DNA of 64,000 bases, from IMG/VR virus record IMGVR_UViG_3300045988_056900; one strand, written 5' to 3'. The notes beneath the pieces are model-generated. The model did no database searches. It saw only the letters and a list, made by a program, of their open reading frames with translations, and was not told the DNA's origin. This document shows, piece after piece, positions 6,010 through 32,076 of the stretch. This DNA is from a virus. Position numbers and translations under genes: made by a program. Numbering within the stretch: the stretch's first letter is position 1; each line of letters opens with the position of its first letter.

Positions 6010-7989
6010 TTAATCCCATAGGCTCATTTGTAACGGTTTTAATTCACGGATTATCTTATAGGCTTCCATAATGTAATACCTATAATTAATCTTTCTCTCT
6101 TCAATTGGTTTATCGTCTAAGTAATTTAATAAAGTAACACCAGATGCAGTAAGCATATTCTGATACTGTTTTTCTTTTGCAACAAATATCTTTTTACCTA
6201 CATATGGTTCATCATATTCTATAATTTCACCTTCTTTGTGTCCTGTTGGTTTCCATTTCCATAAATAGGCACCATTAGTACTTGCATAGAAACGATTAGT
6301 CCTTTGTTGTTCTTTATTATTATACTCAACATGCCATTGTTTACCAGTCTTTTCAGCCATTAGAAAGTCTCTAATGTCTTGGCAACCTTTTATAGTTTCT
6401 TCTACTGGTACTCCGTTCTTAAAAAAGTTTATTACTGCTTTCGGTATGATCTTCGGAGTTAGACCTTTCCCTAATTTCACAGTAGTAATAAACATACCCT
6501 TTTCTTTTACTTTATCATCTTCAGTAATAGCAAAGTAGTCATTTATAGCATATTGATACATAGCCTTAAAACGTTCTTCTTCTAAAGTAAGTTTAGTAAG
6601 TTGTTCCCATTCTCTGCATACTTTGTTTACACTATCATATACAGATTTTTTAAGTAATACAAACAGACCATCTGTATTAGCTTGGACGATTCGACATCCT
6701 AATTGGGTTAGTTTTTCAGCTAGCATTAGTAATAGTAACTGCCCATTTATACGTATTTGCATTACTGCAAATGGACTATAACAGAAATTATGTGGATTCT
6801 GTAAGTTACCTGATAATCCATTGAGAGCAAGCTTTAAGGTTTCGTTTTTAACCTTATTGCCATTGTGTTTAGCTTCGATGCGCTCATCTTTAATTTGTCT
6901 ATATACTTCTAGAAATTCAGGTCCTAAATGTTTAGGATAGAACCCATATTCTATTAGCATACTTGGATATAGTGATGCAACATCTATATCAATGAGCATT
7001 TCATCTTCTTTTGGTATAACTATTTCAGGATCATTCACTGAATGAATTCCTCCAACTCCTACAGAATATCTTAATCCTTCAAATATGAATTTATTTTCAT
7101 ATCCTTTTCTTCCTGGAGATACTATTTGACTTTTCATATCATCTAGTACTTTTTGAAGTATAGGACTATCATACTTAATAAATGGTAGGATTACCTTATT
7201 TAAAGGTATTACATCCATTGGAGATCTTAAATCTTTAATATCATACCAGGTTTGACCTGTCTTTTCAAGATATTTCTGAGTTAAAATCTTCATTCCAATG
7301 TTTACTCCGTCTTTACTAAGTACTCTTACTCCGTATTCATCTTCAATAGCTAACCTTAAATCTACATCTTTTTTACATCTATTGAGTAACTCTTCAGTAG
7401 AATTAACATCATTAATATTATACTCAATCATTGAATCTATTTGATTTTCAGGTAAATCTGCCTGCCAATCTGCAACAAATTCCTGTACATTTCTGTACTG
7501 CATTGTTACTTGAATTTCTTTCAAACCTACTCTTAACTTATTGCTATAAAGCATAGTAAGAATATCAAACGAATCAAAACAAATCATATACTTCCACTTA
7601 CTCCAAGCTCTAATATCGTCTTCACTTGAAGTAGTAATTACTTTACTTAAATTAAATATAGATCTACATATATCTCTATATCCTTTGTATTTCATTACAA
7701 CATAATAATCTATTATATAATTTATAATAGGATTATCATAATGAAGATTATTATAACCACAAAATAATTTATTAGTATTTAACTGAATTTTTGTAGTATA
7801 TAAGTCTCCGAAAGTATAGTCTGTATTAACTGTATGAAAGAAATTGACTAATTCATCTAATTGATTTCTTCTGCAAGATATTTCAAATTTATGCAATTCA
7901 CCTGTTTCTGTATTTTTTACAGTACAATGGAAAACATTGGGGAATACCTCAATATCATATACATAAACAATCTTATCTCGTATAATCAT
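6010..7989 (-). CDS. family B DNA polymerase
   Basis: 659 aa. Exo I DIEVFPN, Exo II NNLHYDNPI, Exo III YNINDVNS, motif A DVASLYPS, motif B KLALNGLSG, motif C QANTDGLFV. Confidence 0.95.
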   Translation of the reverse strand: MIIRDKIVYVYDIEVFPNVFHCTVKNTETGELHKFEISCRRNQLDELVNFFHTVNTDYTFGDLYTTKIQLNTNKLFCGYNNLHYDNPIINYIIDYYVVMKYKGYRDICRSIFNLSKVITTSSEDDIRAWSKWKYMICFDSFDILTMLYSNKLRVGLKEIQVTMQYRNVQEFVADWQADLPENQIDSMIEYNINDVNSTEELLNRCKKDVDLRLAIEDEYGVRVLSKDGVNIGMKILTQKYLEKTGQTWYDIKDLRSPMDVIPLNKVILPFIKYDSPILQKVLDDMKSQIVSPGRKGYENKFIFEGLRYSVGVGGIHSVNDPEIVIPKEDEMLIDIDVASLYPSMLIEYGFYPKHLGPEFLEVYRQIKDERIEAKHNGNKVKNETLKLALNGLSGNLQNPHNFCYSPFAVMQIRINGQLLLLMLAEKLTQLGCRIVQANTDGLFVLLKKSVYDSVNKVCREWEQLTKLTLEEERFKAMYQYAINDYFAITEDDKVKEKGMFITTVKLGKGLTPKIIPKAVINFFKNGVPVEETIKGCQDIRDFLMAEKTGKQWHVEYNNKEQQRTNRFYASTNGAYLWKWKPTGHKEGEIIEYDEPYVGKKIFVAKEKQYQNMLTASGVTLLNYLDDKPIEERKINYRYYIMEAYKIIRELKPLQMSLWD

Positions 7990-8008: not shown

Positions 8009-8066
8009 AGTCTGTGGAGGGAATCGAACCCTCATTTAACAGTTTTTCCATTTAAACTACACAGAC
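8009..8066 (-). ncRNA. tRNA-like module A lacking an anticodon arm (58 nt)
   Basis: Minus strand reads GTCTGTG-TA-GTTT-AAATGGAA-AAAC-TGTTAAAT-GAGGG-TTCGATT-CCCTC-CACAGAC-T. It has a perfect 7-bp acceptor stem, a D-arm with GG, and a canonical T-arm. Only 8 nt occupy the place of the anticodon arm. Confidence 0.55.
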
Positions 8067-10718: not shown

Positions 10719-11351
10719 TTATTCTGTTGTAGTAGTTTCAACATGCACGTTTACTTCTACATCACTTCCAATACCACACTGCCGCATATAATCAGTATAA
10801 ATGCGTTTGTTAGCATCGGAATAACCTCGAACTGTCTTAGACAGATTCAAGCAGTGACGAGCAAAGTTCTCGTAGTGAGTAATAGCACCCATGTTAGCTT
10901 CCTCAACTAATTTGTCGAGATTCGGCAAATCTTCAGCTGAGAAAAACATCGGACTAGCTCCGCTCTTACCAAGGCGGTCAATTGCTTCCGTAACGTTAGC
11001 CCGGGTAGCTTTGCTGAAATCCGGTTCAGCTATTTCGAACATCAAAGGTTCAACACCAGGAATGTCCTTGTTGATAGCAATCTTCGGCCGTTGATCAAGA
11101 TCCTTAGCGACAATACTTACACTCATGATATCAATAGCTTTAATAATATAAGCTTTGATCTCATTGCGGAAAGTATTGATGCCATTCATGACGTCTTCCT
11201 TGTACTTAGGATCTGGATTTACTGCGATAATAGTAAATAACTGCTTACCGAAGTAAGGACCATATTTCTGTGCCACTTGCCGGTTACGTGCTAAGATTTG
11301 TGCAGCTGCGTTAGGAATCTGCGGTGCACTGTTGTTATTCAAATTTTCCAT
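10719..11351 (-). CDS. hypothetical protein
   Basis: 210-aa ORF. Confidence 0.7.
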   Translation of the reverse strand: MENLNNNSAPQIPNAAAQILARNRQVAQKYGPYFGKQLFTIIAVNPDPKYKEDVMNGINTFRNEIKAYIIKAIDIMSVSIVAKDLDQRPKIAINKDIPGVEPLMFEIAEPDFSKATRANVTEAIDRLGKSGASPMFFSAEDLPNLDKLVEEANMGAITHYENFARHCLNLSKTVRGYSDANKRIYTDYMRQCGIGSDVEVNVHVETTTTE

Positions 11352-13499
11352 AAAAAATGTTCCCTTCTTGAGTCCGCATTTGATATACCAATACAGATCA
11401 TTTTTTAGTTTTTAAGTTAATAATAAGTTAATGCTCTCCACTGTTCGATTATTTTATAGCATTACAATAATGGTAATGGTGAATTCAATCACATAATCTA
11501 CTAGGTATTAAAATAATAAATGTTAATTTATTTGAAAATATCTTCTGATAAATTCTCTGATAATTTCTGTTAATTCTGATATGTTTATCGTCCCGTTTCG
11601 ACGGTTAAGATTCAACTTTTTCGATGCTTAACGCACCTCTCACCGTTATTTTATATCGCGATTAGATGCAATATAAAAGACATAGATCATTGACTAATGG
11701 TAAGTCTACCTAGTATTTCCGGATTATCGAAATTCATAGAATTACGGTCGTTTATCTAACGTTACCAACTCACAAGCCCATTACTTATAGTATGGCCCAC
11801 TTGTACCATGCATAGGATTTGTTGTTTATTCTGCTCGAACACGAGGATTTCCACCTCTCATCGTCTCCTTGTTGCTCAATTGTTATTACTATTGAGTCGA
11901 AATGTACTACGCCCTTTAATCTACCGAGACAGGGTGATAGGCGACAGGTTATTAACGAATCAGCGTTCTCTTTACATATATACTTGCAATATATACTTTA
12001 GGAGTTTCTAATGTCAGCGATGACGGTTGGCAGTCTGGGGTGGATCATACTCCTTATCTGACTACTTTACAACAGTAGTTTGCTATCTCTGTACTCGCCA
12101 TTGAACTTCCCAATTTGGTAAAGATTAATAATGTTAACAATTCACTTAGAACAGATTTAACTAGGCCGGTTCTATTCGGCATTAACTTTCAGATGCAGTA
12201 AAGTAACATCATCTGTTACAGTCTTACCTCTCTGGTTCCAGGGTTCTAAGCTGGAGCAGCTTGGCTCTTACTCATTAATTTATTGTTTTTGACCACTACT
12301 AATATCTCCTACTCTGGAATGAGTGTGATAATCTAGCAATGCACCTTTACATATCTTAAAAGGTATAAGCTCTGCTGTTTTTTACGAGGAGTTTTCTAAG
12401 CTTCTCCTTAGTATTATTTATCATTATAATCACACTTGCTAAAGGTGTGTAACGATTAGAATCAGGGTTATTGCGCCCTCAAACCGCTTAGACACTCTTG
12501 GTCTATTCATTCCTCATTCAATTATACTCACACGAACGAATAAGCACGTGAGTCACTTTAGACTTGAAAGACGGTATCAATCTCATATACCTCATCCCTT
12601 ATACGTAAATTCTTTTGCGGCACGCTAGTTACGGTAGCGCACAGGATTGGCTCCTGCTCCCTGGTAATCAGTCTATTTTCACTATAATTTTAACATAGTT
12701 ACTTAGGATCATTGCATGTCCAGCCTTCATATCTTTACTTTGTATAAGTATGTACCATAACACGGTTATCCTTACATTAGTATCAGTAATTACTCCCTTT
12801 ATATTATGAACCAATTATCATAAAAACACTAGAGTTAGCCTATTTTTCCAATCAGGACGCATAGTTGCGTTTTTGTATGAAGCGAGGTTGGAACCCGCTT
12901 GTTGCGTTAGTCAGCCATAATGTATTTTTCGATAATCCTTTTCCAAGGGATTATCCAAGAACCCTTTGTCCTTGTTTCAGCATCGTGTTCATATTCCTTC
13001 TTGAGTCACATCTTGATTGACGCATACGAATATAGAGATTTCGTTCTCTTTTTGAGGATTAAGGATTTCATCTTTTGTAGTTTTTATTTGCTTATTGCTA
13101 CGAATTCATCTCCTCGGTTTTGAATTAATTTGTAACTAGGGTATCTTCTTGTAGCTCCTATATTACGGGTTCTTCACTCTTAATATCACCAGACGGTTCT
13201 CATATTAACAGCGCAGGCTATTCACCCTCTCCTGCTTTCTTATACCTTTTTCACCAGTATAAGTTATTATCCTACCTTTTGAGTATCTCACAGTGTTAGC
13301 TGCTACGAAGCATCTCATAACTACTTCTTACATATTCTCGGATTCTGTCTTTTTTCGGGCTATGTGTAAATGGACACAAACTCCCTGACGCAGTAGTACT
13401 TAAAAACTTCCTTCTGTGACTGCCGGAGTGATTTACGCTATAGTTTTACTCCTCTCGAACTATGATATAATTATAGTATTTATATAGCGGCTATTATCA
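11352..13499. other. 2.15-kb ORF-free block, candidate large non-coding RNA locus
   Basis: No ORF of 60 aa or more on the operon strand. Where I checked by hand (13140-13499), stops occur in all three minus-strand frames even when TAG is ignored. The block is flanked by complete co-directional genes and looks richer in G+C than the flanks. It has many short hairpins, for example CCGT-TTCG-ACGG at 11593-11604 and AAGCTG-GAG-CAGCTT at 12248-12262. Confidence 0.5.
11544..11582. repeat. four tandem TCTGATAA-type repeats
   Basis: TCTGATAA (11544), TCTGATAA (11556), TCTGTTAA (11566), TCTGATAT (11575). Same motif as the array at 3933-3961. Confidence 0.55.
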
Positions 13500-13925
13500 T
13501 TAACTATTTTCCGCTGAGGATTTATCTTCTCCTGTAATTTCTGACTCTGGTTTTACAAGAAATATGTCTCCAGAAGATAAGTTGATGTTTGCAACCACCT
13601 TCTTACCCCGGCATATATCAACTATGCCATTTTTTATATCATTACTACTGATATAATCAATTGGATCCATACGTCCTGGATCAAAACCATCCAAGTGCAC
13701 GCATATACTACTTACAGACGAGCGTAAGTACTGTTCTACGAATAAGATGTTACTTATACTAGCTTTCGCTTGTACCTGTATCATATTAGAACTTTCTCCG
13801 GCTACTATAAAGTAACCGGTTTGATCTACTACCAAATCTAAATTACGCCTAGCATCTTTGCTATTTCGTATAATACGTGATAGTCGCATCATACTATTAA
13901 GCATAATAAGATTCTTCTTACTCAT
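13500..13925 (-). CDS. hypothetical protein
   Basis: 141-aa ORF. Confidence 0.65.
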   Translation of the reverse strand: MSKKNLIMLNSMMRLSRIIRNSKDARRNLDLVVDQTGYFIVAGESSNMIQVQAKASISNILFVEQYLRSSVSSICVHLDGFDPGRMDPIDYISSNDIKNGIVDICRGKKVVANINLSSGDIFLVKPESEITGEDKSSAENS

Positions 13926-14386: not shown

Positions 14387-15925
14387 TTAGCTTTTTTTTT
14401 CTTCAGCTGCAGCCTCTTCTTTCTTGGTTTCCGGATATTCACCTACAAGTACAGGAAGTGGACCTTCAAATTCGGCAATCTTGTCCATAGGTGAACGATA
14501 GTAGTTGATGATCTTACCAACAGCAAAACGCAGTTGCTCATTAGTAGGAGGAATCTTTCCAGGGTAATAGTTAGCACGAACAAGAGAGATAACCTTTCTA
14601 GCACTATCGCGCGCCATTTTGATTTCTGCCAATTGTTCATCAGTTGCTCCTTCAGGAACAGAACATGTGTAGTCATGCATCAATTTGTCAACATAATCCA
14701 CGCCAATTACTCCCATTGTTGCTTGAATAGCTTTGTCATCTGCCGGATTTTCAATCTTCTCGGTTTTGATAACATTACCATTAGCATCAATTTTGTCTTC
14801 CAAGTTATATCGGAAGTTTTCCTGGATGAATGTACGAACGATAAGTACAACTTCATCATCTGTAACAGTAGGTACAGCGCCATGAACAATGCAATGTGCA
14901 CTTACCGGCGAGTTTTCCTTCTTGGTATACAGATATACGGCACGTCCGATTCCTTTCATCAAACCAGCTACAGGTACAAGATGGAAAATCTCATTGATCC
15001 ATTCGTCTATTCGACGATTGTCAATCTTGAGCTTTTCATCAGTAGTACTAGCATTGTTGATACAAAGTTTACGATACCATTCAATGGTGTCAATTAAACT
15101 AATTACAATGTTACGATCTTTACGTAACAGATATTCCAAAGCACTACAGATCTTTTCATGATCTGAACCTACTTTTTCAATATCGGTTTCTGGAACTTCA
15201 AGTTTAGCCAGTTTAGGATCCTTCAGTTCTTCAGGAATAATAGTTTCCTGTGGTCCAAAAGGAATTGCTAACTGACCGTCTGTAGCTCCAGGAAGAGCAC
15301 GCGGTGATGCAAGTTTCACACCGAACATAGTAGCCATTTCTTGCAACGGCATAATCTGTTCAGGAGACACTATCAACTGAAGTTTACCTTCAGCCTGCAT
15401 ACCGATCATTTCTTGCTGAACACCGAGCATTCCAAGGAACCATACAGCATTAATCGCTTGATTAATAGCATTGTATTGTTCAGGGAAGTTCTTCTTCAAC
15501 TCTTCATTGTTAGTGAATCGTTGATGTCCAACAAATGAAAGCATAGCTTTAGCATCTGTAGAACTTGTAGAAGAACCAGTCGGAGCACCGATAGACTTAG
15601 CAAGTGTTTTCACTGCTTCAGCCGGATCTACTTCTTCAGCAATAACTGTAGGAGTCTTATCCTTCTTTGGCTTTGGCTGTTGTGCAGCACCTTTCTGGGC
15701 GGGCTGTTTGTCAGTCTTAGCCTGAGTCTGCGCTTTTTCCTCTTTCTTAGGTTGAGCAGCAGCCGGCTTTTCAGTTGCTGCTGGTGCAGCTACTTGCTGA
15801 GTTGTTTCAGCACTTCCTTTCTCGGTTTTAGTTACTTTTGCAGTGTTACCTGCTTTAGCTGTTTCTGCAGGTTTTGCTGCAGTACTTGCAGCTGCTTGAG
15901 CTGCTTTGTTTTTCTTAGACGACAT
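14387..15925 (-). CDS. hypothetical protein with a ~100-aa A/K/P/Q/E-rich low-complexity N-terminus
   Basis: 512-aa ORF. Codon third positions look G/C-richer than in neighbours. It is preceded by the conserved leader AAACATTATCAAA-ATG. Confidence 0.8.
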   Translation of the reverse strand: MSSKKNKAAQAAASTAAKPAETAKAGNTAKVTKTEKGSAETTQQVAAPAATEKPAAAQPKKEEKAQTQAKTDKQPAQKGAAQQPKPKKDKTPTVIAEEVDPAEAVKTLAKSIGAPTGSSTSSTDAKAMLSFVGHQRFTNNEELKKNFPEQYNAINQAINAVWFLGMLGVQQEMIGMQAEGKLQLIVSPEQIMPLQEMATMFGVKLASPRALPGATDGQLAIPFGPQETIIPEELKDPKLAKLEVPETDIEKVGSDHEKICSALEYLLRKDRNIVISLIDTIEWYRKLCINNASTTDEKLKIDNRRIDEWINEIFHLVPVAGLMKGIGRAVYLYTKKENSPVSAHCIVHGAVPTVTDDEVVLIVRTFIQENFRYNLEDKIDANGNVIKTEKIENPADDKAIQATMGVIGVDYVDKLMHDYTCSVPEGATDEQLAEIKMARDSARKVISLVRANYYPGKIPPTNEQLRFAVGKIINYYRSPMDKIAEFEGPLPVLVGEYPETKKEEAAAEEKKS

Positions 15926-18485: not shown

Positions 18486-18707
18486 GGCGACTGTCACTAT
18501 TTCTAGCGCTAAAATCTATTTCACAACCCCATCATTAGTAACAGTTTCTCTTTAAATAAAGAGTTGTTAACCAGGATACTGTATGCTCCCCTGGGGATAT
18601 CTCACGCTGCTAAGCGTGTATAATCCATTACATAACTTGTATTGCCAGTTATCTGCTTATTGACCTATTCTACTTCACATTGTCGCAGTCAAATGCCTAG
18701 ATGCCCC
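18486..18707 (-). ncRNA. tmRNA-like coding piece: 5' acceptor strand, D-loop-like motif and tag reading frame ending LAA-stop
   Basis: The minus strand from 18707 reads GGGGCAT-CTAGGCATTTGAC-TGCGAC. Positions 18646-18602 read GGC AAT ACA AGT TAT GTA ATG GAT TAT ACA CGC TTA GCA GCG TGA, that is GNTSYVMDYTRLAA*. ACAGTC at 18494-18489 can pair with GACTGT of the upstream acceptor piece. The 3' boundary is a guess. Confidence 0.4.
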
Positions 18708-18863
18708 ATTTAAAGTAGTACTCTTACAAAATTTAACTTATAGTTTGAGTACTACTCCCGATCTTCCTATCGCTGTTAATGAAAAAACTCTTAGAGAGAA
18801 ATCGAAAATTAGCGTAAGATTTCTATACGGGCCTCTTATTATTCTTGCTTATTCCATTTTTTG

Positions 18864-18920
18864 TGGAGCATGAGGGAGTCGAACCCTCGTCCTAACGACT
18901 GATTCATAGACCTAACAGTC
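18864..18920 (-). ncRNA. tmRNA-like acceptor piece: hairpin, GGAC, T-arm, 3' acceptor strand and discriminator A
   Basis: Minus strand reads GACTG-(14 nt)-CAGTC-GTTA-GGAC-GAGGG-TTCGACT-CCCTC-ATGCTCC-A, followed by CAA. ATGCTCC is complementary to GGGGCAT at 18707-18701, with G3:U70. Confidence 0.4.
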
Positions 18921-19551
18921 AATGAGTTTATAAGATTAATTGAAGTATAACTCGCGTACAGAATTAAGCCATTCTTCCTGCTTTATTATTTAACACAGTT
19001 CACAGCACTCTCTACAGGTGAGCCTTCGTTATGTTATACAATATCCCTGCTATTTTTACAATTAATCTTATATTGTGACTAGGTAGGCGACCAAACCTAC
19101 CTAGCCTATGGTCTTTTACGATATTTAAAGTATTCTCATACTATTAATGCCTTGATAACCTGTCTTGGAAGTATAGAATACTTTTCAGCTTCTATACGGC
19201 ATGATGTCTAGCATCGCACTATTCCAAAAATGCCGACTTGATATCATAAGAATGCTATTGCATAATATACTCAAAGAGTATAGAATCTGTATTTATATAT
19301 TGCGCAATTTATATATACATCCTCATGATCTTAGGCACATGATCAGTGGCACGTTGTCATAATGTCCTACTCTGGCATCGGTTGTATTACTACACCTTAC
19401 ACTTGTTGTATGCATGTCAATTCATGCATGAGCTGCATCTTCTGGTACTTAGCACATAAAATGTCATCACCACCTATTAGCTACTTTCTCTAGTTAGGTT
19501 ATATAGTCAGTATTTCTACTGCTAAAACACTATACCTGGACTATGCGCGGA

Positions 19552-20330: not shown

Positions 20331-20539
20331 ATTTTTGATAATTTGGTTTTAGAATTAAAAAAAGAACTGTTCTGTATATTCCTATCTCTTATTCTACAGA
20401 TAACCCCTATCCTTCTCTCCCTTTATCTGTAGATTTACAGATTGCCGTTGAATAGCCATTACATAGTAATATGTATTAGGGTTTTGGTATATTTACAGTT
20501 CTTTCGGGTTGATTGGAATCCACCATACTAACAATTTAA

Positions 20540-21986: not shown

Positions 21987-22464
21987 TTTTACATAGGCTT
22001 TAAAATTGTTAGTTAATAAATATGATGACGTCTGTATACAGCACTATATACAGAATAATTTACCGCAGTGCTACGGAGATTTGAGACTAATACTATAAAG
22101 CAATAGCGCTCTATTGCACATCTGTTATTAAAGAAATCATTTCCACATATTACTATGTTTAATTTAAACCCTCACATGTTTTAGGATTACTCCAGAGTAC
22201 AAGCAGAAAAGGCTGTCAAACCTAATCTTATCACTCACCTGATTTTAACGTCCGCACGATCGTAGTATTTGCAATTATCAGTACTAATTAGAGTAATTGC
22301 CACCCTTCTTCTCCCGCTTAAAAATACTACTTACGCCCCACAGGCTTGTCATCTTCTGAAGACTAGTCTATTCTCACGAACAAACTAGTTGTGTCGAAAT
22401 TTTTAAACCATTTCTATGCAAAATGCTTCAAAAAACTGTAATAACTTGTTTTAATTATTACTCT

Positions 22465-24107: not shown

Positions 24108-24921
24108 ATATTATAATGTTTTAATTAGTAATCAAATAGAAATAAAGTAAGCGCATTATATCCGCCCTTATACATATGAATGCTATGCTATTCTCTTACT
24201 TTATAATTTGAGACTTCTTTATTGGTTACTTCTTGCTCAAGGAAGACCTCAACTATTTTATTTTTCTCTAGTTCCGCATTGTAATAGTTAACAGATGCGG
24301 CAACTTCATACTTAAAATGATACTTATTGTTCAGTTAGTATCAGACTGTCAAGCTCCGTACACCTTATTTCCGGATGAAACATTTTCTCTTTGCTTGCTT
24401 AGATTAGTTACTTTAAAGAGTTGCACATCACAGCGAACCTAACTGTGACCTCTTACCACGTGGATTATTTAACTATTAAATATCAATAATTTACTGTGCA
24501 TATAAGTTAAAGATAAATAATAATTAATTACTTTGACTCTGCATTGTCCACCGACTTGTCACGGCCTTCATTGGTTGCATTAAAGTAATAATATATGTGA
24601 AATCACACTATCCTCACAGACCGTGTAATTGTTAGTTTAATTTTTCAGAAAATCTCTTGCATTTTACACCTAAAACTCTATGAGCAGCAACTCACATCTA
24701 TTAGATAGTTTGCGCGCGTTTTATAATAGAGAAACCGGTGCCCTCAATGTCTTGGGAAGTTATTGAGTTTTTTGTTTATCAAATTATATTAGTTGTTATT
24801 CCTTTTCTTTTAAATAATAGTATATAATTATACATATTATGATTATTCCTCCTGCAAATTGTATCTGTGACCATTCCATATTAATGAAAGTTTCTATTTT
24901 AATTATGTGTTGTTATTGACA

Positions 24922-31890: not shown

Positions 31891-31993
31891 GGGAGAGTGG
31901 CGGAATGGTATACGGCAGTAGATTGACGGAAGCGCCCTAAAGTCGTCGTTAACAAAGCTCTTGGGTTTGAAAGTTCGAATCTTTCCTCTCCCG
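31891..31993 (+). ncRNA. 103-nt non-canonical tRNA-like element
   Basis: Acceptor GGGAGAG/CTCTCCC. tRNA-Leu-like GTGGCGGAATGGTATAC. Perfect T-arm GAAAG-TTCGAAT-CTTTC. The 69-nt interior has no canonical 5-bp/7-nt anticodon arm in any register I tried. Confidence 0.35.
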
Positions 31994-32001
31994 CTTAATA
32001 T

Positions 32002-32076
32002 TGCCCTATGGTGTAATGGTTAGCACAGGAGGCTCTAACCCTCTTAGTCTGCGTTCGAGTCGTAGTAGGGCTACCA
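32002..32076 (+). tRNA. amber suppressor tRNA, anticodon CTA (reads TAG), tRNA-Gln-like
   Basis: Cloverleaf TGCCCTA-TG-GTGT-AATGGTTA-GCAC-A-GGAGG-CTCTAAC-CCTCT-TAGT-CTGCG-TTCGAGT-CGTAG-TAGGGCT-A-CCA. The anticodon is at 32035-32037. CCA is encoded. Confidence 0.85.

Follow-up and report, generated by a model that had tools for sequence, protein, structure and literature searches.

What is encoded in 2,148 nt that contain no substantial open reading frame (ORF) and lie between two genes of the same operon? We addressed this question for positions 11352-13499 of a viral genome stretch from IMG/VR (IMGVR_UViG_3300045988_056900), whose 64,000 nt are called the window here. The window is ~99.6% identical to the crAss-like phage cr113_1 (NC_055896; Suoliviridae, Buchavirus). 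In the human gut, few virus families are as abundant as Suoliviridae. The Delta group accounts for 13-18% of the reads mapped to putative viral genomes (PMC7886860), and Suoliviridae have never been cultured (PMC10136315).

The block shows gene-like conservation and hairpins that are kept through compensating mutations, and therefore probably encodes a structured non-coding RNA, very large and made up of several domains, found family-wide in Suoliviridae ('delta' crAss-like phages). Most likely, this is a previously undescribed structured RNA locus: a literature search returned no description of it. The features are listed in Table 1.

Table 1. Features of the block and its flanking genes, in window coordinates
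Feature	Position	Strand	Remarks
Whole ORF-free block, presumed structured RNA locus	11352..13499	minus	Conserved, non-coding; 369 pairs in 70 helices
Upstream flanking gene, 141 aa	13500..13925	minus	No assigned function; syntenic with block in four subfamilies
Hairpin GGGAGUUUGUGU/ACACAUAGCCC	13357..13384	minus	Helix 6; covarying stem, near-fixed loop YCAUUU
Hairpin GCAGG/CCUGC, 13-nt loop	13213..13235	minus	Helix 12; 4 of 5 pairs changed on both sides, 100% paired
Hairpin N-G-G-A[ACGAAA]U-C-C-N'	13035..13048	minus	Helix 13; loop ACGAAA in 21 of 21 sequences
Module copy 1, nested in helix UAUUC/GAAUA	12989..13034	minus	Repeat D1; helices 14-15
Adjacent hairpins CAAGGAC/GUUCUUG and UAAUCCUU/AAGGAUUA	12933..12974	minus	Helices 17, 18
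T-arm-like hairpin AGCGGG[UUCCAAC]CUCGCU	12881..12899	minus	Helix 19; 3 of 6 pairs changed on both sides
Multi-helix domain, ~215 nt	12563..12778	minus	Helices 22-31; long nested stem around hairpins
Hairpins 12541-12505, 12481-12462, 12453-12423	about 12431..12541	minus	Helices 33, 37, 38, 39
Core 2, GGGAAGUUCAAUGG...CACCCCGACUGCC stem and 7-bp hairpin with NNGCAAN loop	11966..12115	minus	Model R1
Nested domain, ~137 nt, ACGCUGA.../...UCGAGCA with inner helices	11830..11966	minus	Helices 52-57; fixed loop UGGAAAU
11-bp hairpin UUUUAUAUUGC/GCGAUAUAAAA	11649..11678	minus	Helix 63; 6 pairs changed on both sides, 84% paired
UUAUCAGA short repeats, partly hairpin-folded	11528..11581	minus	Helices 66-67; two pairs changed on both sides
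24-mer AGUAGRUUAUGUGAUUGAAUUCAC in AT-rich 3' tail	11479..11502	minus	23 of 24 columns invariant in 15 diverse sequences
Module copy 2, hairpin and ACUCAAGAAGG	11357..11401	minus	Repeat D1; R2 secondary matches
Downstream flanking gene, 210 aa	10719..11351	minus	No assigned function; initiation region holds module copy 2
Long-range helices	13465-13455/11448-11438; 13389-13385/12017-12013; 12987-12981/12550-12545; 12488-12482/12028-12022	minus	Consensus helices 1, 5, 16 and 35-36

Reading frames and conservation of the block

A sequence-only reading had described the block as ORF-free between two complete minus-strand genes, and this description was borne out. No minus-strand ORF of 60 aa or more is present in 11352-13499, the plus strand has three short ORFs only (11808, 11819 and 12920), and both flanking genes are complete. 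The same reading had argued that recoding of TAG could not rescue coding. In the window and eight homologues, each of the six frames contains 16-40 TAA codons; the longest TAA-free run on the sense (minus) strand was 60-199 codons across the nine sequences, with 199 in one genome only. Dense TAA in all frames was also found in the blocks of other subfamilies. As TAA stops occur throughout all six frames, no stop-codon reassignment restores coding.

Variable sites in the block were distributed over the three phases as 354/380/364 (chi2 0.94, p 0.63), without a 3-nt periodicity. Within the block, chi2 was at most 2.8 in any 150-nt window, compared with 17 for the gene at 13500-13925 and 33 for the gene at 10719-11351. 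A protein-coding signal, the finding that would speak against a structured RNA, was thus looked for and not seen: the stops in all frames, together with the missing codon periodicity, exclude coding. GenBank records nevertheless annotate a 145-aa plus-strand ORF within the block. It requires read-through of TAG and is not kept in relatives, and the hypothetical proteins annotated within the block are spurious and should be corrected in the databases.

We found more than 119 homologous stretches in IMG/VR, among them 106 full-length sequences, of which 88 are unique and 21 differ by more than 3%; the lowest pairwise identity was 67%. Syntenic gaps of 2,055-2,477 nt with collinear nhmmer matches are present in four subfamilies of Suoliviridae (Loutivirinae, Bearivirinae, Uncouvirinae and Boorivirinae). 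A scan of bacterial genomes for a host returned only phage-sized contigs mis-binned into MAGs and chance matches. A short pattern tried for distant relatives, GCTGACATTBGAAAC, was rejected since its matches were mostly chance ones in unrelated contigs; these contigs then served as negative controls.

Identity within the block was 0.66-0.92, in comparison with 0.40-0.75 at the third codon positions of the flanking genes and 0.66-0.97 at their first and second positions. At the level of sequence identity, purifying selection on the block is shown to be as strong as that on codon positions 1 and 2. Because conservation is far above the identity at third codon positions, neutral decay is ruled out. 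Insertions and deletions comprise entire hairpins. For example, a 72-nt insert is closed by GAGGA/UCCUC in the window and by GGAGA/UCUCC in another genome (L105).

Covariation and the consensus structure

The sequence-only reading had proposed covariation among homologous blocks as a check on a structured RNA. In a structure-agnostic scan, 19 local antiparallel stacks had a summed covariation of at least 1.5, compared with 2 on parallel diagonals. In the consensus of 369 pairs in 70 helices, 94.7% of the cells were paired (shuffles 86.8±0.2; slid registers 36-43%), 133 pairs were changed on both sides (shuffles 85.5±4.3; slid registers 26-36) and 655 cells were changed on both sides (shuffles 211; slid registers 59-92), the structures being derived from or fitted to the same alignments that were used for scoring. 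The covariation far exceeds the shuffle, slid-register and parallel-diagonal controls. Most of the helices are short. Loops are often invariant where the stems covary.

Transfer of the full structure to Bearivirinae through a sequence alignment was rejected, with 57.6% of the cells paired against 38-43% in slid registers, because variable segments misalign. Covariance models of two cores were used instead, and these recognised the cores across the four subfamilies. Model R1, built from Loutivirinae only, reached 71-77, 44.5 and 34-35 bits in the three subfamilies not used for it; its matches lay within the gap and on the gene-sense strand, and there were none in 24 unrelated contigs. In the alignment across the four subfamilies, 98.5% of the cells were paired and 10 of 16 pairs were compensatory (control 4.2±1.2), again with a structure derived from or fitted to the scored alignment. 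The target of R1, Core 2, is the most widely conserved part of the block, and all seven pairs of its hairpin are compensatory across subfamilies.

Other hairpins show the same kind of change. Helix 6 has 10 pairs, 4 of them changed on both sides, and is 96% paired. Helix 12 is replaced by GAGGG/CCCUC in Bearivirinae, while the closing pair of helix 13 occurs as GC, GU, AU, UA or CG. In helices 17 and 18, 3 of 7 and 5 of 8 pairs, respectively, are changed on both sides. Helices 22-31 are 95-100% paired, several of their pairs are changed on both sides, and the domain has the fixed loops GUU, GCCAA and AUGAGAUUG. The region at 12431-12541 is among the most invariant islands of the block and includes the hairpin 12481-12462, which is the invariant GAGGGCGCNAUAACCCUGA island; here UAGGG/CCCUA becomes GAGUG/CACUU in Bearivirinae. 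Four long-range inverted repeats (I1 of 20 nt, I12, I13 and I16) had been picked out from the window sequence by itself; they were only 21-68% paired in homologues and, being unconserved, are attributed to chance.

The T-arm-like hairpin seen in the sequence-only reading is real, conserved and covarying, but no tRNA was called there by ARAGORN or Rfam (RF00005). It is isolated, and its loop, YUCCAAM, has no purine at T-loop position 57. Its counterpart in Bearivirinae is GGGUAG/CUCCCC (83% paired). The tRNA calls in the window by ARAGORN and Rfam are at 8009-8066, 31891-31993 and 32002-32076 only, and neither a tRNA nor a tmRNA was found within the block.

The reading of a large structured RNA, or of a cluster of such RNAs, is thus supported, but on grounds other than those first given. 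The G+C content of the block (0.362) exceeds that of the upstream gene (0.354) but not that of the downstream gene (0.414), and lies only slightly above the mean for the operon (0.339). Nor is it dense in stable hairpins: the z score of the minimum free energy (MFE) was 0.35 and 0.04 for two 300-nt segments (200 shuffles) and from -1.3 to +0.4 in another calculation on block segments, and the unusually stable folds belong to the flanking coding sequences (z = -5.95). Many structured RNAs are more stable than shuffled sequence, although they are not defined by it. The UUCG loops that had been noted were not recovered: among 10 occurrences of UUCG, none had the form C(UUCG)G and none was a predicted tetraloop.

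No match to Rfam 15 was found in 11000-13900 at the gathering threshold. At E<=10 with permissive filters, only the chance-level snoR64 (19.8 bits) and a plastid UTR (17.8 bits) appeared. The families proposed for comparison in the sequence-only reading, GOLLD, ROOL, HEARO, OLE, group I and II introns, RNase P and tmRNA, were unmatched even at E<=10, as were raiA and rRNA. With conservation above the neutral level and an excess of compensatory changes, the block would qualify as a conserved structured RNA in the generic sense. It also appears to be of the GOLLD/ROOL-like 'ornate large RNA' kind, as it is longer than 500 nt, has conserved nucleotides among covarying helices and is carried by a phage.

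Few large RNAs of the ornate kind are known, GOLLD, ROOL and OLE among them, and their functions are a long-standing puzzle; recent cryo-EM work reportedly found that large ornate RNAs form unexpected RNA-only assemblies. ROOL and OLE have no assigned biochemical function, and OLE acts in a ribonucleoprotein together with proteins dedicated to it. Like the block, ROOL and OLE exceed 500 nt, are ornate RNAs from bacteria or phages and were defined by comparative genomics. However, the block has no covariance-model match to them, is 3-4 times larger and has a different host range; no partner protein was found for it, and its neighbouring proteins are uninformative. GOLLD is likewise a large phage or prophage non-coding RNA to which no function is assigned; it has numerous short helices that covary, and its unpaired nucleotides are highly conserved (PMC12286853). 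The block differs from GOLLD in having no sequence or structure match to it (Rfam, E<=10), in being ~2.5 times longer (~2.1 kb against ~0.8 kb), in lying within a co-directional protein-coding operon of a crAss-like phage that infects Bacteroidota, and in its distance from tRNA genes, the nearest being ~3.3 kb away. With this locus, the large ornate RNAs would gain a family two to four times the size of GOLLD, ROOL and OLE.

One RNA, several RNAs or a DNA element

Very probably, the block functions through RNA structure in some arrangement. When hairpins were picked by a strand-symmetric rule, 90 G·U and 39 A·C combinations were counted on the gene-sense strand; when spans of up to 300 nt were included, the counts were 135 and 104, a moderate strand bias. 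The alifold energy was -469 for the forward strand and -432 for its reverse complement, and the base skews of the block agree with those of the surrounding minus-strand genes. The G·U bias points to the minus (gene-sense) strand as the strand of action. The block would then be transcribed from this strand within the early/middle (replication-module) operon, and the RNA would either stay an intercistronic part of the operon transcript or be cut out of it.

Several candidate signals were rejected. The Bacteroidota promoter TAnnTTTG is absent from both strands of the block (79 were found in the window and 78 expected), and a sigma-70-like scan of the block stayed at chance level. The highly conserved 5' 60 nt (AATACTATAATTATA), considered as a possible phage promoter, did not recur above chance elsewhere. 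A GUUCGAG...UAAA motif occurs twice in the block, marginally above chance.

As for the arrangement, we lean slightly towards one long RNA. The block would act as a single molecule of ~2.1 kb, and as a folded RNA rather than as DNA, for example as a scaffold, in a ribonucleoprotein or as a decoy for a host or phage factor. If true, this would be the largest conserved structured non-coding RNA known in a bacterium or phage, rRNA apart. A rather unlikely alternative is that the space between the two genes holds a series of small structured RNAs or cis-elements that are independent of each other, such as sRNAs, processing sites and translational operators. In its favour, the solid covariation is restricted to local and mid-range helices with a span of up to about 210 nt, whereas the long-range helices 1, 5, 16 and 35-36, which would join the block into a single molecule, are mostly invariant or have one compensatory change and failed to transfer to Bearivirinae under sequence alignment; also, the two conserved cores are separable in covariance-model searches, and separate small structured RNAs occupy other gaps of the same operon. 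Against such a cluster, the order of the islands and the total length (~2.05-2.5 kb) are maintained in four subfamilies, and no partially deleted version was found in more than 100 genomes, except at contig ends. Conservation is continuous, with no neutral spacer of more than about 50 nt apart from the hairpin-sized indels, and neither terminator-like sites nor promoter enrichment was detected on the sense strand inside the block.

The separate small RNAs are RAGATH-7, -9 and -20 and a Hatchet ribozyme, which Rfam places at 19.3-24.5 kb. They resemble the block as structured RNAs on the same strand of the same transcription unit, in ORF-poor gaps. They differ in being 100-210 nt long and having curated Rfam matches; the block has ten times their size and no match to any of them. 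As all of these lie in the same operon, the early/middle transcription unit looks unusually RNA-rich; our literature search returned no link between RAGATH and crAss-like phages.

An element acting at the DNA level, such as a replication origin, packaging site or protein-binding region, with hairpins formed in single-stranded DNA or repeats serving as sites, is very unlikely. The block lies in the replication module, 3-10 kb from the DNA polymerase and helicase genes, and its folding energy is unexceptional. Its 3' tail (11352-11599) is AT-rich (GC 0.258) and carries short UAUCAGA/TCTGATAA repeats and the nearly invariant 24-mer. However, some 70 compensated helices over 2 kb are far more than an origin needs, and the excess of G·U over A·C favours one strand. 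The iteron-like array with which the block had been said to begin is reduced, in Tandem Repeats Finder, to 2.1-3.8 copies of a 9-12-nt unit at 11543-11581, near the 3' end in the RNA sense; the short repeats have 2-4 copies only and lie inside a hairpin with two compensated pairs. The cumulative GC skew falls steadily over 8-17 kb, through the block, and has its minimum at ~24-27 kb.

A protein-coding region (with an unusual code, programmed frameshifts or intron-split), or else a decaying pseudogene or neutral spacer, is hardly credible in view of the stops, the missing periodicity, the absence of intron matches and the conservation described above, even though relatives recode TAG in late genes, the window encodes a CTA-anticodon suppressor tRNA and the 145-aa ORF stands in GenBank.

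A hairpin module repeated at the downstream start site

A small module of the block is duplicated. In copy 1, a 4-bp hairpin that covaries and has the loop (A)AUCA(A/U) precedes the sequence GRA(A/C)UCAAGAAGGR. Copy 2 ends in the Shine-Dalgarno region, 6-10 nt upstream of the ATG of the 210-aa gene. Model R2 gave secondary matches of 18-31 bits at the position of copy 2 in every searched genome with the site, in three subfamilies. The module pattern has 3 occurrences in the 64 kb, all on the minus strand of the block, against an expectation of 0.5. A conserved small ORF after copy 1 was considered and rejected, as several lineages have ACG in place of AUG.

Because the module is duplicated at the translation-initiation region of the 210-aa gene, one factor may bind both copies. 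Such a factor, on binding the big RNA and the hairpin-plus-UCAAGAAGG module at the start of the gene, might throttle its translation; we regard this as unlikely, the proposal being drawn by analogy. The analogy is with the autoregulation of ribosomal-protein operons through rRNA-site mimicry (for example L1, S8, L20, S15). In the block, a structured element of a large RNA has a second copy at the initiation region of the adjacent gene, and such a layout allows one binding factor to sense free RNA and to repress its own mRNA. The likeness is one of layout only: the adjacent protein here is acidic to neutral, and the block has no homology to ribosomal-protein leaders or to rRNA.

The neighbouring proteins were also inspected. 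Searches with PHROGs and Pfam identified only an ECF-type sigma factor, 3 kb upstream, and homologues of the neighbouring proteins occur solely in the same phages. The 141-aa protein belongs to no Pfam or PHROGs family; its AF2 model (pLDDT 74) is a helical hairpin without a Foldseek match at E<=0.001. For the 210-aa protein, the AF2 model was unusable (pLDDT 43.5). The two proteins have pI values of 5.7 and 6.6, and no RNA-binding signature was found in either. Since they are non-basic and lack such a signature, the idea of a ribonucleoprotein or of mimicry receives no support from the protein side.

The fullest version of the one-RNA reading is a tentative possibility. A single RNA of ~2.1 kb, universal in Suoliviridae, could serve a ribonucleoprotein or a self-assembling particle as its core, with the level of the RNA sensed through the module mimic at the start site. 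The regulatory hypothesis based on the module can be tested in vitro, and this needs no phage culture. More than 100 natural variants and two cores defined by covariance models are available as a resource.

Conservation and distribution of the ORF-free block

The block at 11352-13499 is genuine: it is non-coding and strongly conserved. The core observation of the sequence-only reading was correct, since the block holds no minus-strand ORF of at least 60 aa and lies between two complete minus-strand genes (10719-11351 and 13500-13925). By blastn, it was 99.6% identical to crAssphage cr113_1 (NC_055896; Crassvirales, Suoliviridae, Loutivirinae, Buchavirus), and seven more deposited phages matched it, full-length or partially.

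With a 19-base invariant island as the query, more than 119 stretches were retrieved from IMG/VR. The full block was present in 106 loci (88 unique, 21 differing by more than 3%), with pairwise identity down to 67% and a length of 2,054-2,220 nt in Loutivirinae. Its identity to the window (0.66-0.92) was similar to that of codon positions 1+2 of the flanking genes (0.66-0.97) and far above that of their third positions (0.40-0.75). Nearly invariant islands alternated with indel-rich patches in a mosaic.

Syntenic ORF-free gaps between the orthologous genes were found in three further subfamilies: Bearivirinae (the cr6_1 clade; 62 loci, 2,146-2,162 nt with one exception), Uncouvirinae (cr125_1, 2,055 nt; cr115_1, 2,205 nt) and Boorivirinae (cr55_1, 2,477 nt). 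In all of them, nhmmer matched two cores of the block significantly and in collinear order. In cr6_1 (locus L029), the annotated upstream gene gp60 (6327-6797) has an in-frame stop 24 codons ahead of its annotated end. This stop is probably the real end, which would make the non-coding block 2,155 nt, not 2,080 nt.

Three block-bearing contigs (L342, L339 and L337) were deposited within bacterial MAGs. Two contigs of phage size (98.9 kb and 100.1 kb), in MAGs labelled Bacilli and Sphaerochaeta, carry the full block, and a 5.6-kb fragment in a Clostridium MAG carries part of it. We regard all three as apparent binning errors, uninformative about the host.

Predicted RNA structure

A structure-agnostic scan looked for stacks of four or more successive column pairs with at least 90% canonical pairing in each. 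In it, 19 local antiparallel stacks reached a summed covariation of 1.5, compared with 2 on parallel diagonals; raising the cut-off to 2 left 12 and 0. After removal of helices shorter than 3 bp, an RNAalifold consensus from the 21-sequence alignment had 369 pairs in 70 helices. Of its 7,606 cells, 94.7% were paired, a level that none of 500 shuffles reached (86.8±0.2%; slid registers 36-43%). Both sides had changed in 133 pairs (shuffles 85.5±4.3; slid registers 26-36) and 655 cells (shuffles 211±13; slid registers 59-92), and the covariation score was 0.270 (shuffles 0.133; slid registers at most 0.069). These consensus figures are inflated because the structure was derived from the alignment on which it was scored, a weakness that affects the scan and the cross-clade tests less.

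Many hairpin loops stayed constant over covarying stems: ACGAAA, AUGAGAUUG, UGGAAAU and AGA in 21/21 sequences, and GCCAA, UAGC and GUU in 20/21. Lineage-specific indels were whole hairpins; one insert of 72 nt has the closing helix GAGGA/UCCUC in the window and GGAGA/UCUCC in the homologous locus L105. Such loops and indels, together with the mid-range domains (see the table), are typical of functional RNA.

Covariance model R1, built from Loutivirinae only, also had matches in Bearivirinae (71-77 bits), Boorivirinae (44.5 bits) and Uncouvirinae (34-35 bits). All of them were located inside the syntenic gaps in gene-sense orientation, and there was none among 24 unrelated viral contigs. In the four-subfamily alignment, which was fitted to the model, 98.5% of cells were paired, 10 of 16 pairs showed changes in both partners (shuffles 4.2±1.2; slid registers 0-2), and all 7 pairs of an NNGCAAN-loop hairpin were compensatory. 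R2, the model of the other core, scored 47-48 bits in Bearivirinae and weakly, at the collinear position, in Boorivirinae and Uncouvirinae. The whole structure transferred poorly by plain sequence alignment (57.6% paired; slid registers 38-43%), with about ten well-anchored helices still kept through new pair types.

Judged from these comparisons, the conservation pattern is that of a structured RNA, and a functional RNA structure in some arrangement is very likely. We lean towards a single RNA of about 2.1 kb with several domains; several smaller RNAs in a cluster are a possible but less likely arrangement.

Some earlier impressions did not hold. The block is not G+C-richer than both of its flanks (0.362; flanking genes 0.354 and 0.414). 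Dense stable hairpins had been suspected, but dinucleotide shuffles folded as stably as the block segments did (z 0.35 and 0.04; further segments -1.3 to +0.4), and none of the UUCGs forms a C(UUCG)G tetraloop. The predicted folds of the flanking coding regions are much more stable than those of their dinucleotide shuffles, broadly over 9.4-11.2 kb and 13.6-16 kb: most 300-nt windows had z of -2 to -5 while the block was near 0, and 15100-15399 (minus strand) reached -5.95 (0 of 200 shuffles as good). Such folding is unusual for mRNA; conserved structure might reach into the flanking genes.

Two occurrences of the motif GUUCGAG-N-RG-RA-N-UAAA within the block, both in highly conserved contexts, barely exceed chance (0.5 expected; at least two copies in 7 of 100 shuffles). 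A role as a structural module or as a recurring binding site is conceivable.

Another module consists of a 4-bp covarying hairpin with loop (A)AUCA(A/U), followed by GRA(A/C)UCAAGAAGGR. R2 detected its second copy in every searched genome having the site, in three subfamilies, at individually modest scores (18-31 bits). A loose pattern of the module occurred 3 times in the 64-kb window (0.5 expected), each time within the block and on its minus strand. No conserved small ORF follows copy 1. The layout, with a module of the RNA repeated at a start site, resembles that of ribosomal-protein operons with rRNA-site mimicry. A comparable mechanism here would be rather unlikely, as the adjacent proteins are not basic and offer no clues.

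Features of the window and annotated ORFs of homologous loci
Feature	Position	Strand	Remark
Mid-range domain	12778-12563	minus	nested long stem, 95-100% paired
Mid-range domain	12110-12029	minus	well supported in consensus
Mid-range domain	11966-11830	minus	well supported in consensus
Core of model R1	11966-12115		
Core of model R2	12953-13048		
GUUCGAG motif	13444-13460	minus	
GUUCGAG motif	11824-11840	minus	
Module copy 1	12989-13034	minus	inside predicted RNA
Module copy 2	11357-11401	minus	block 3′ edge; AAGAAGG is the downstream gene's Shine-Dalgarno region
Annotated hypothetical protein	about 11624-12061	plus	GenBank/RefSeq
Same, locus L001	6273-6710		GenBank/RefSeq
Same, locus L008	3273-3710		GenBank/RefSeq
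Same, locus L332	2504-2665		GenBank/RefSeq
RAGATH-20	19327-19428	minus	Rfam gathering-level
RAGATH-9	20360-20516	minus	Rfam gathering-level
Hatchet ribozyme	22237-22363	minus	Rfam gathering-level
RAGATH-7	24318-24529	minus	Rfam gathering-level
tmRNA-like gene (tmRNA*)	18511-18957	minus	ARAGORN; tag peptide GNTSYVMDYTRLAA
tRNA gene	31891-31993	plus	Rfam, ARAGORN
tRNA gene	32002-32076	plus	Rfam, ARAGORN

Strand and coding potential

In hairpins picked by a strand-symmetric rule, 90 cells were G·U and 39 A·C (86 and 22 after one hairpin in an indel-rich region was dropped); for spans up to 300 nt the bias was weaker (135 and 104). The alifold energy was -469 forward and -432 for the reverse complement. 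Base skews matched those of the surrounding minus-strand genes, and no sense-strand terminator-like site or promoter enrichment was found inside the block. From these observations we infer that the block may be co-transcribed with its operon on the minus strand. An element acting at the DNA level seems improbable: the supposed iteron-like array shrank to 2.1-3.8 copies of a 9-12-nt unit, and the cumulative GC-skew minimum of the window lies at 24-27 kb, away from the block.

Coding or neutral sequence is highly improbable. In the window and eight homologues, each of the six frames of the block had 16-40 TAA codons, so that reassigning TAG or TGA would not open any of them; the gaps of the other subfamilies likewise had TAA in all frames and none was opened by recoding. 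Among nine homologues, the flanking genes showed a third-position substitution excess (chi2 17 and 33; 4.8-13.4 in every 150-nt window), whereas the block showed no 3-nt periodicity (354/380/364 by phase, chi2 0.94; maximum 2.8 across 150-nt windows). The hypothetical proteins annotated inside the block (cr113_1, cr109_1 and cr125_1) are very short or dependent on TAG read-through, are unconserved among relatives, and are probably spurious. Among them, the plus-strand 145-aa ORF in GenBank (cr113_1, cr109_1) requires TAG read-through and is missing from relatives.

Known RNAs and genomic setting

A search of Rfam 15 families, as the sequence-only reading had proposed, gave no match to the block even with E≤10 allowed. 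Nearest in kind are GOLLD, ROOL and OLE, ornate large RNAs found in phages and bacteria, which share its size class, mosaic conservation and unknown function. Unlike them, the block lies within an operon and has no tRNA-gene association; it is 2.5-4 times longer and has no homology to them. The only mention found in the crAss literature is of some genomes with regions lacking recognisable proteins (PMC7886860). A 2023 review describes Suoliviridae as never cultured and does not mention non-coding RNA (PMC10136315), and crAss goes unmentioned in large-scale surveys of structured RNAs in microbiomes and viruses. As far as the literature searched shows, the locus is undescribed.

The long minus-strand transcription unit runs from about 26.3 kb down to position 124 and contains an ECF-type sigma factor, DNA polymerase and helicase. 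Its four Rfam gathering-level RNAs (see the table) each lie within a smaller ORF-poor gap, and the operon appears unusually rich in structured RNAs. No link between RAGATH RNAs and crAss-like phages was found in the literature searched. The tmRNA* could be a spurious call, or else a tmRNA that is divergent or permuted; no tmRNA reached the Rfam gathering threshold anywhere in the window.

The late region is on the plus strand from about 27.4 kb, with fragmented ORFs. One of the two adjacent tRNA genes has the anticodon CTA (called tRNA-Pyl by ARAGORN) and would thus be an amber suppressor. It agrees with a reassignment of TAG in the late genes on the plus strand, which break up into fragmentary ORFs when read with the standard code (PMC7886860).
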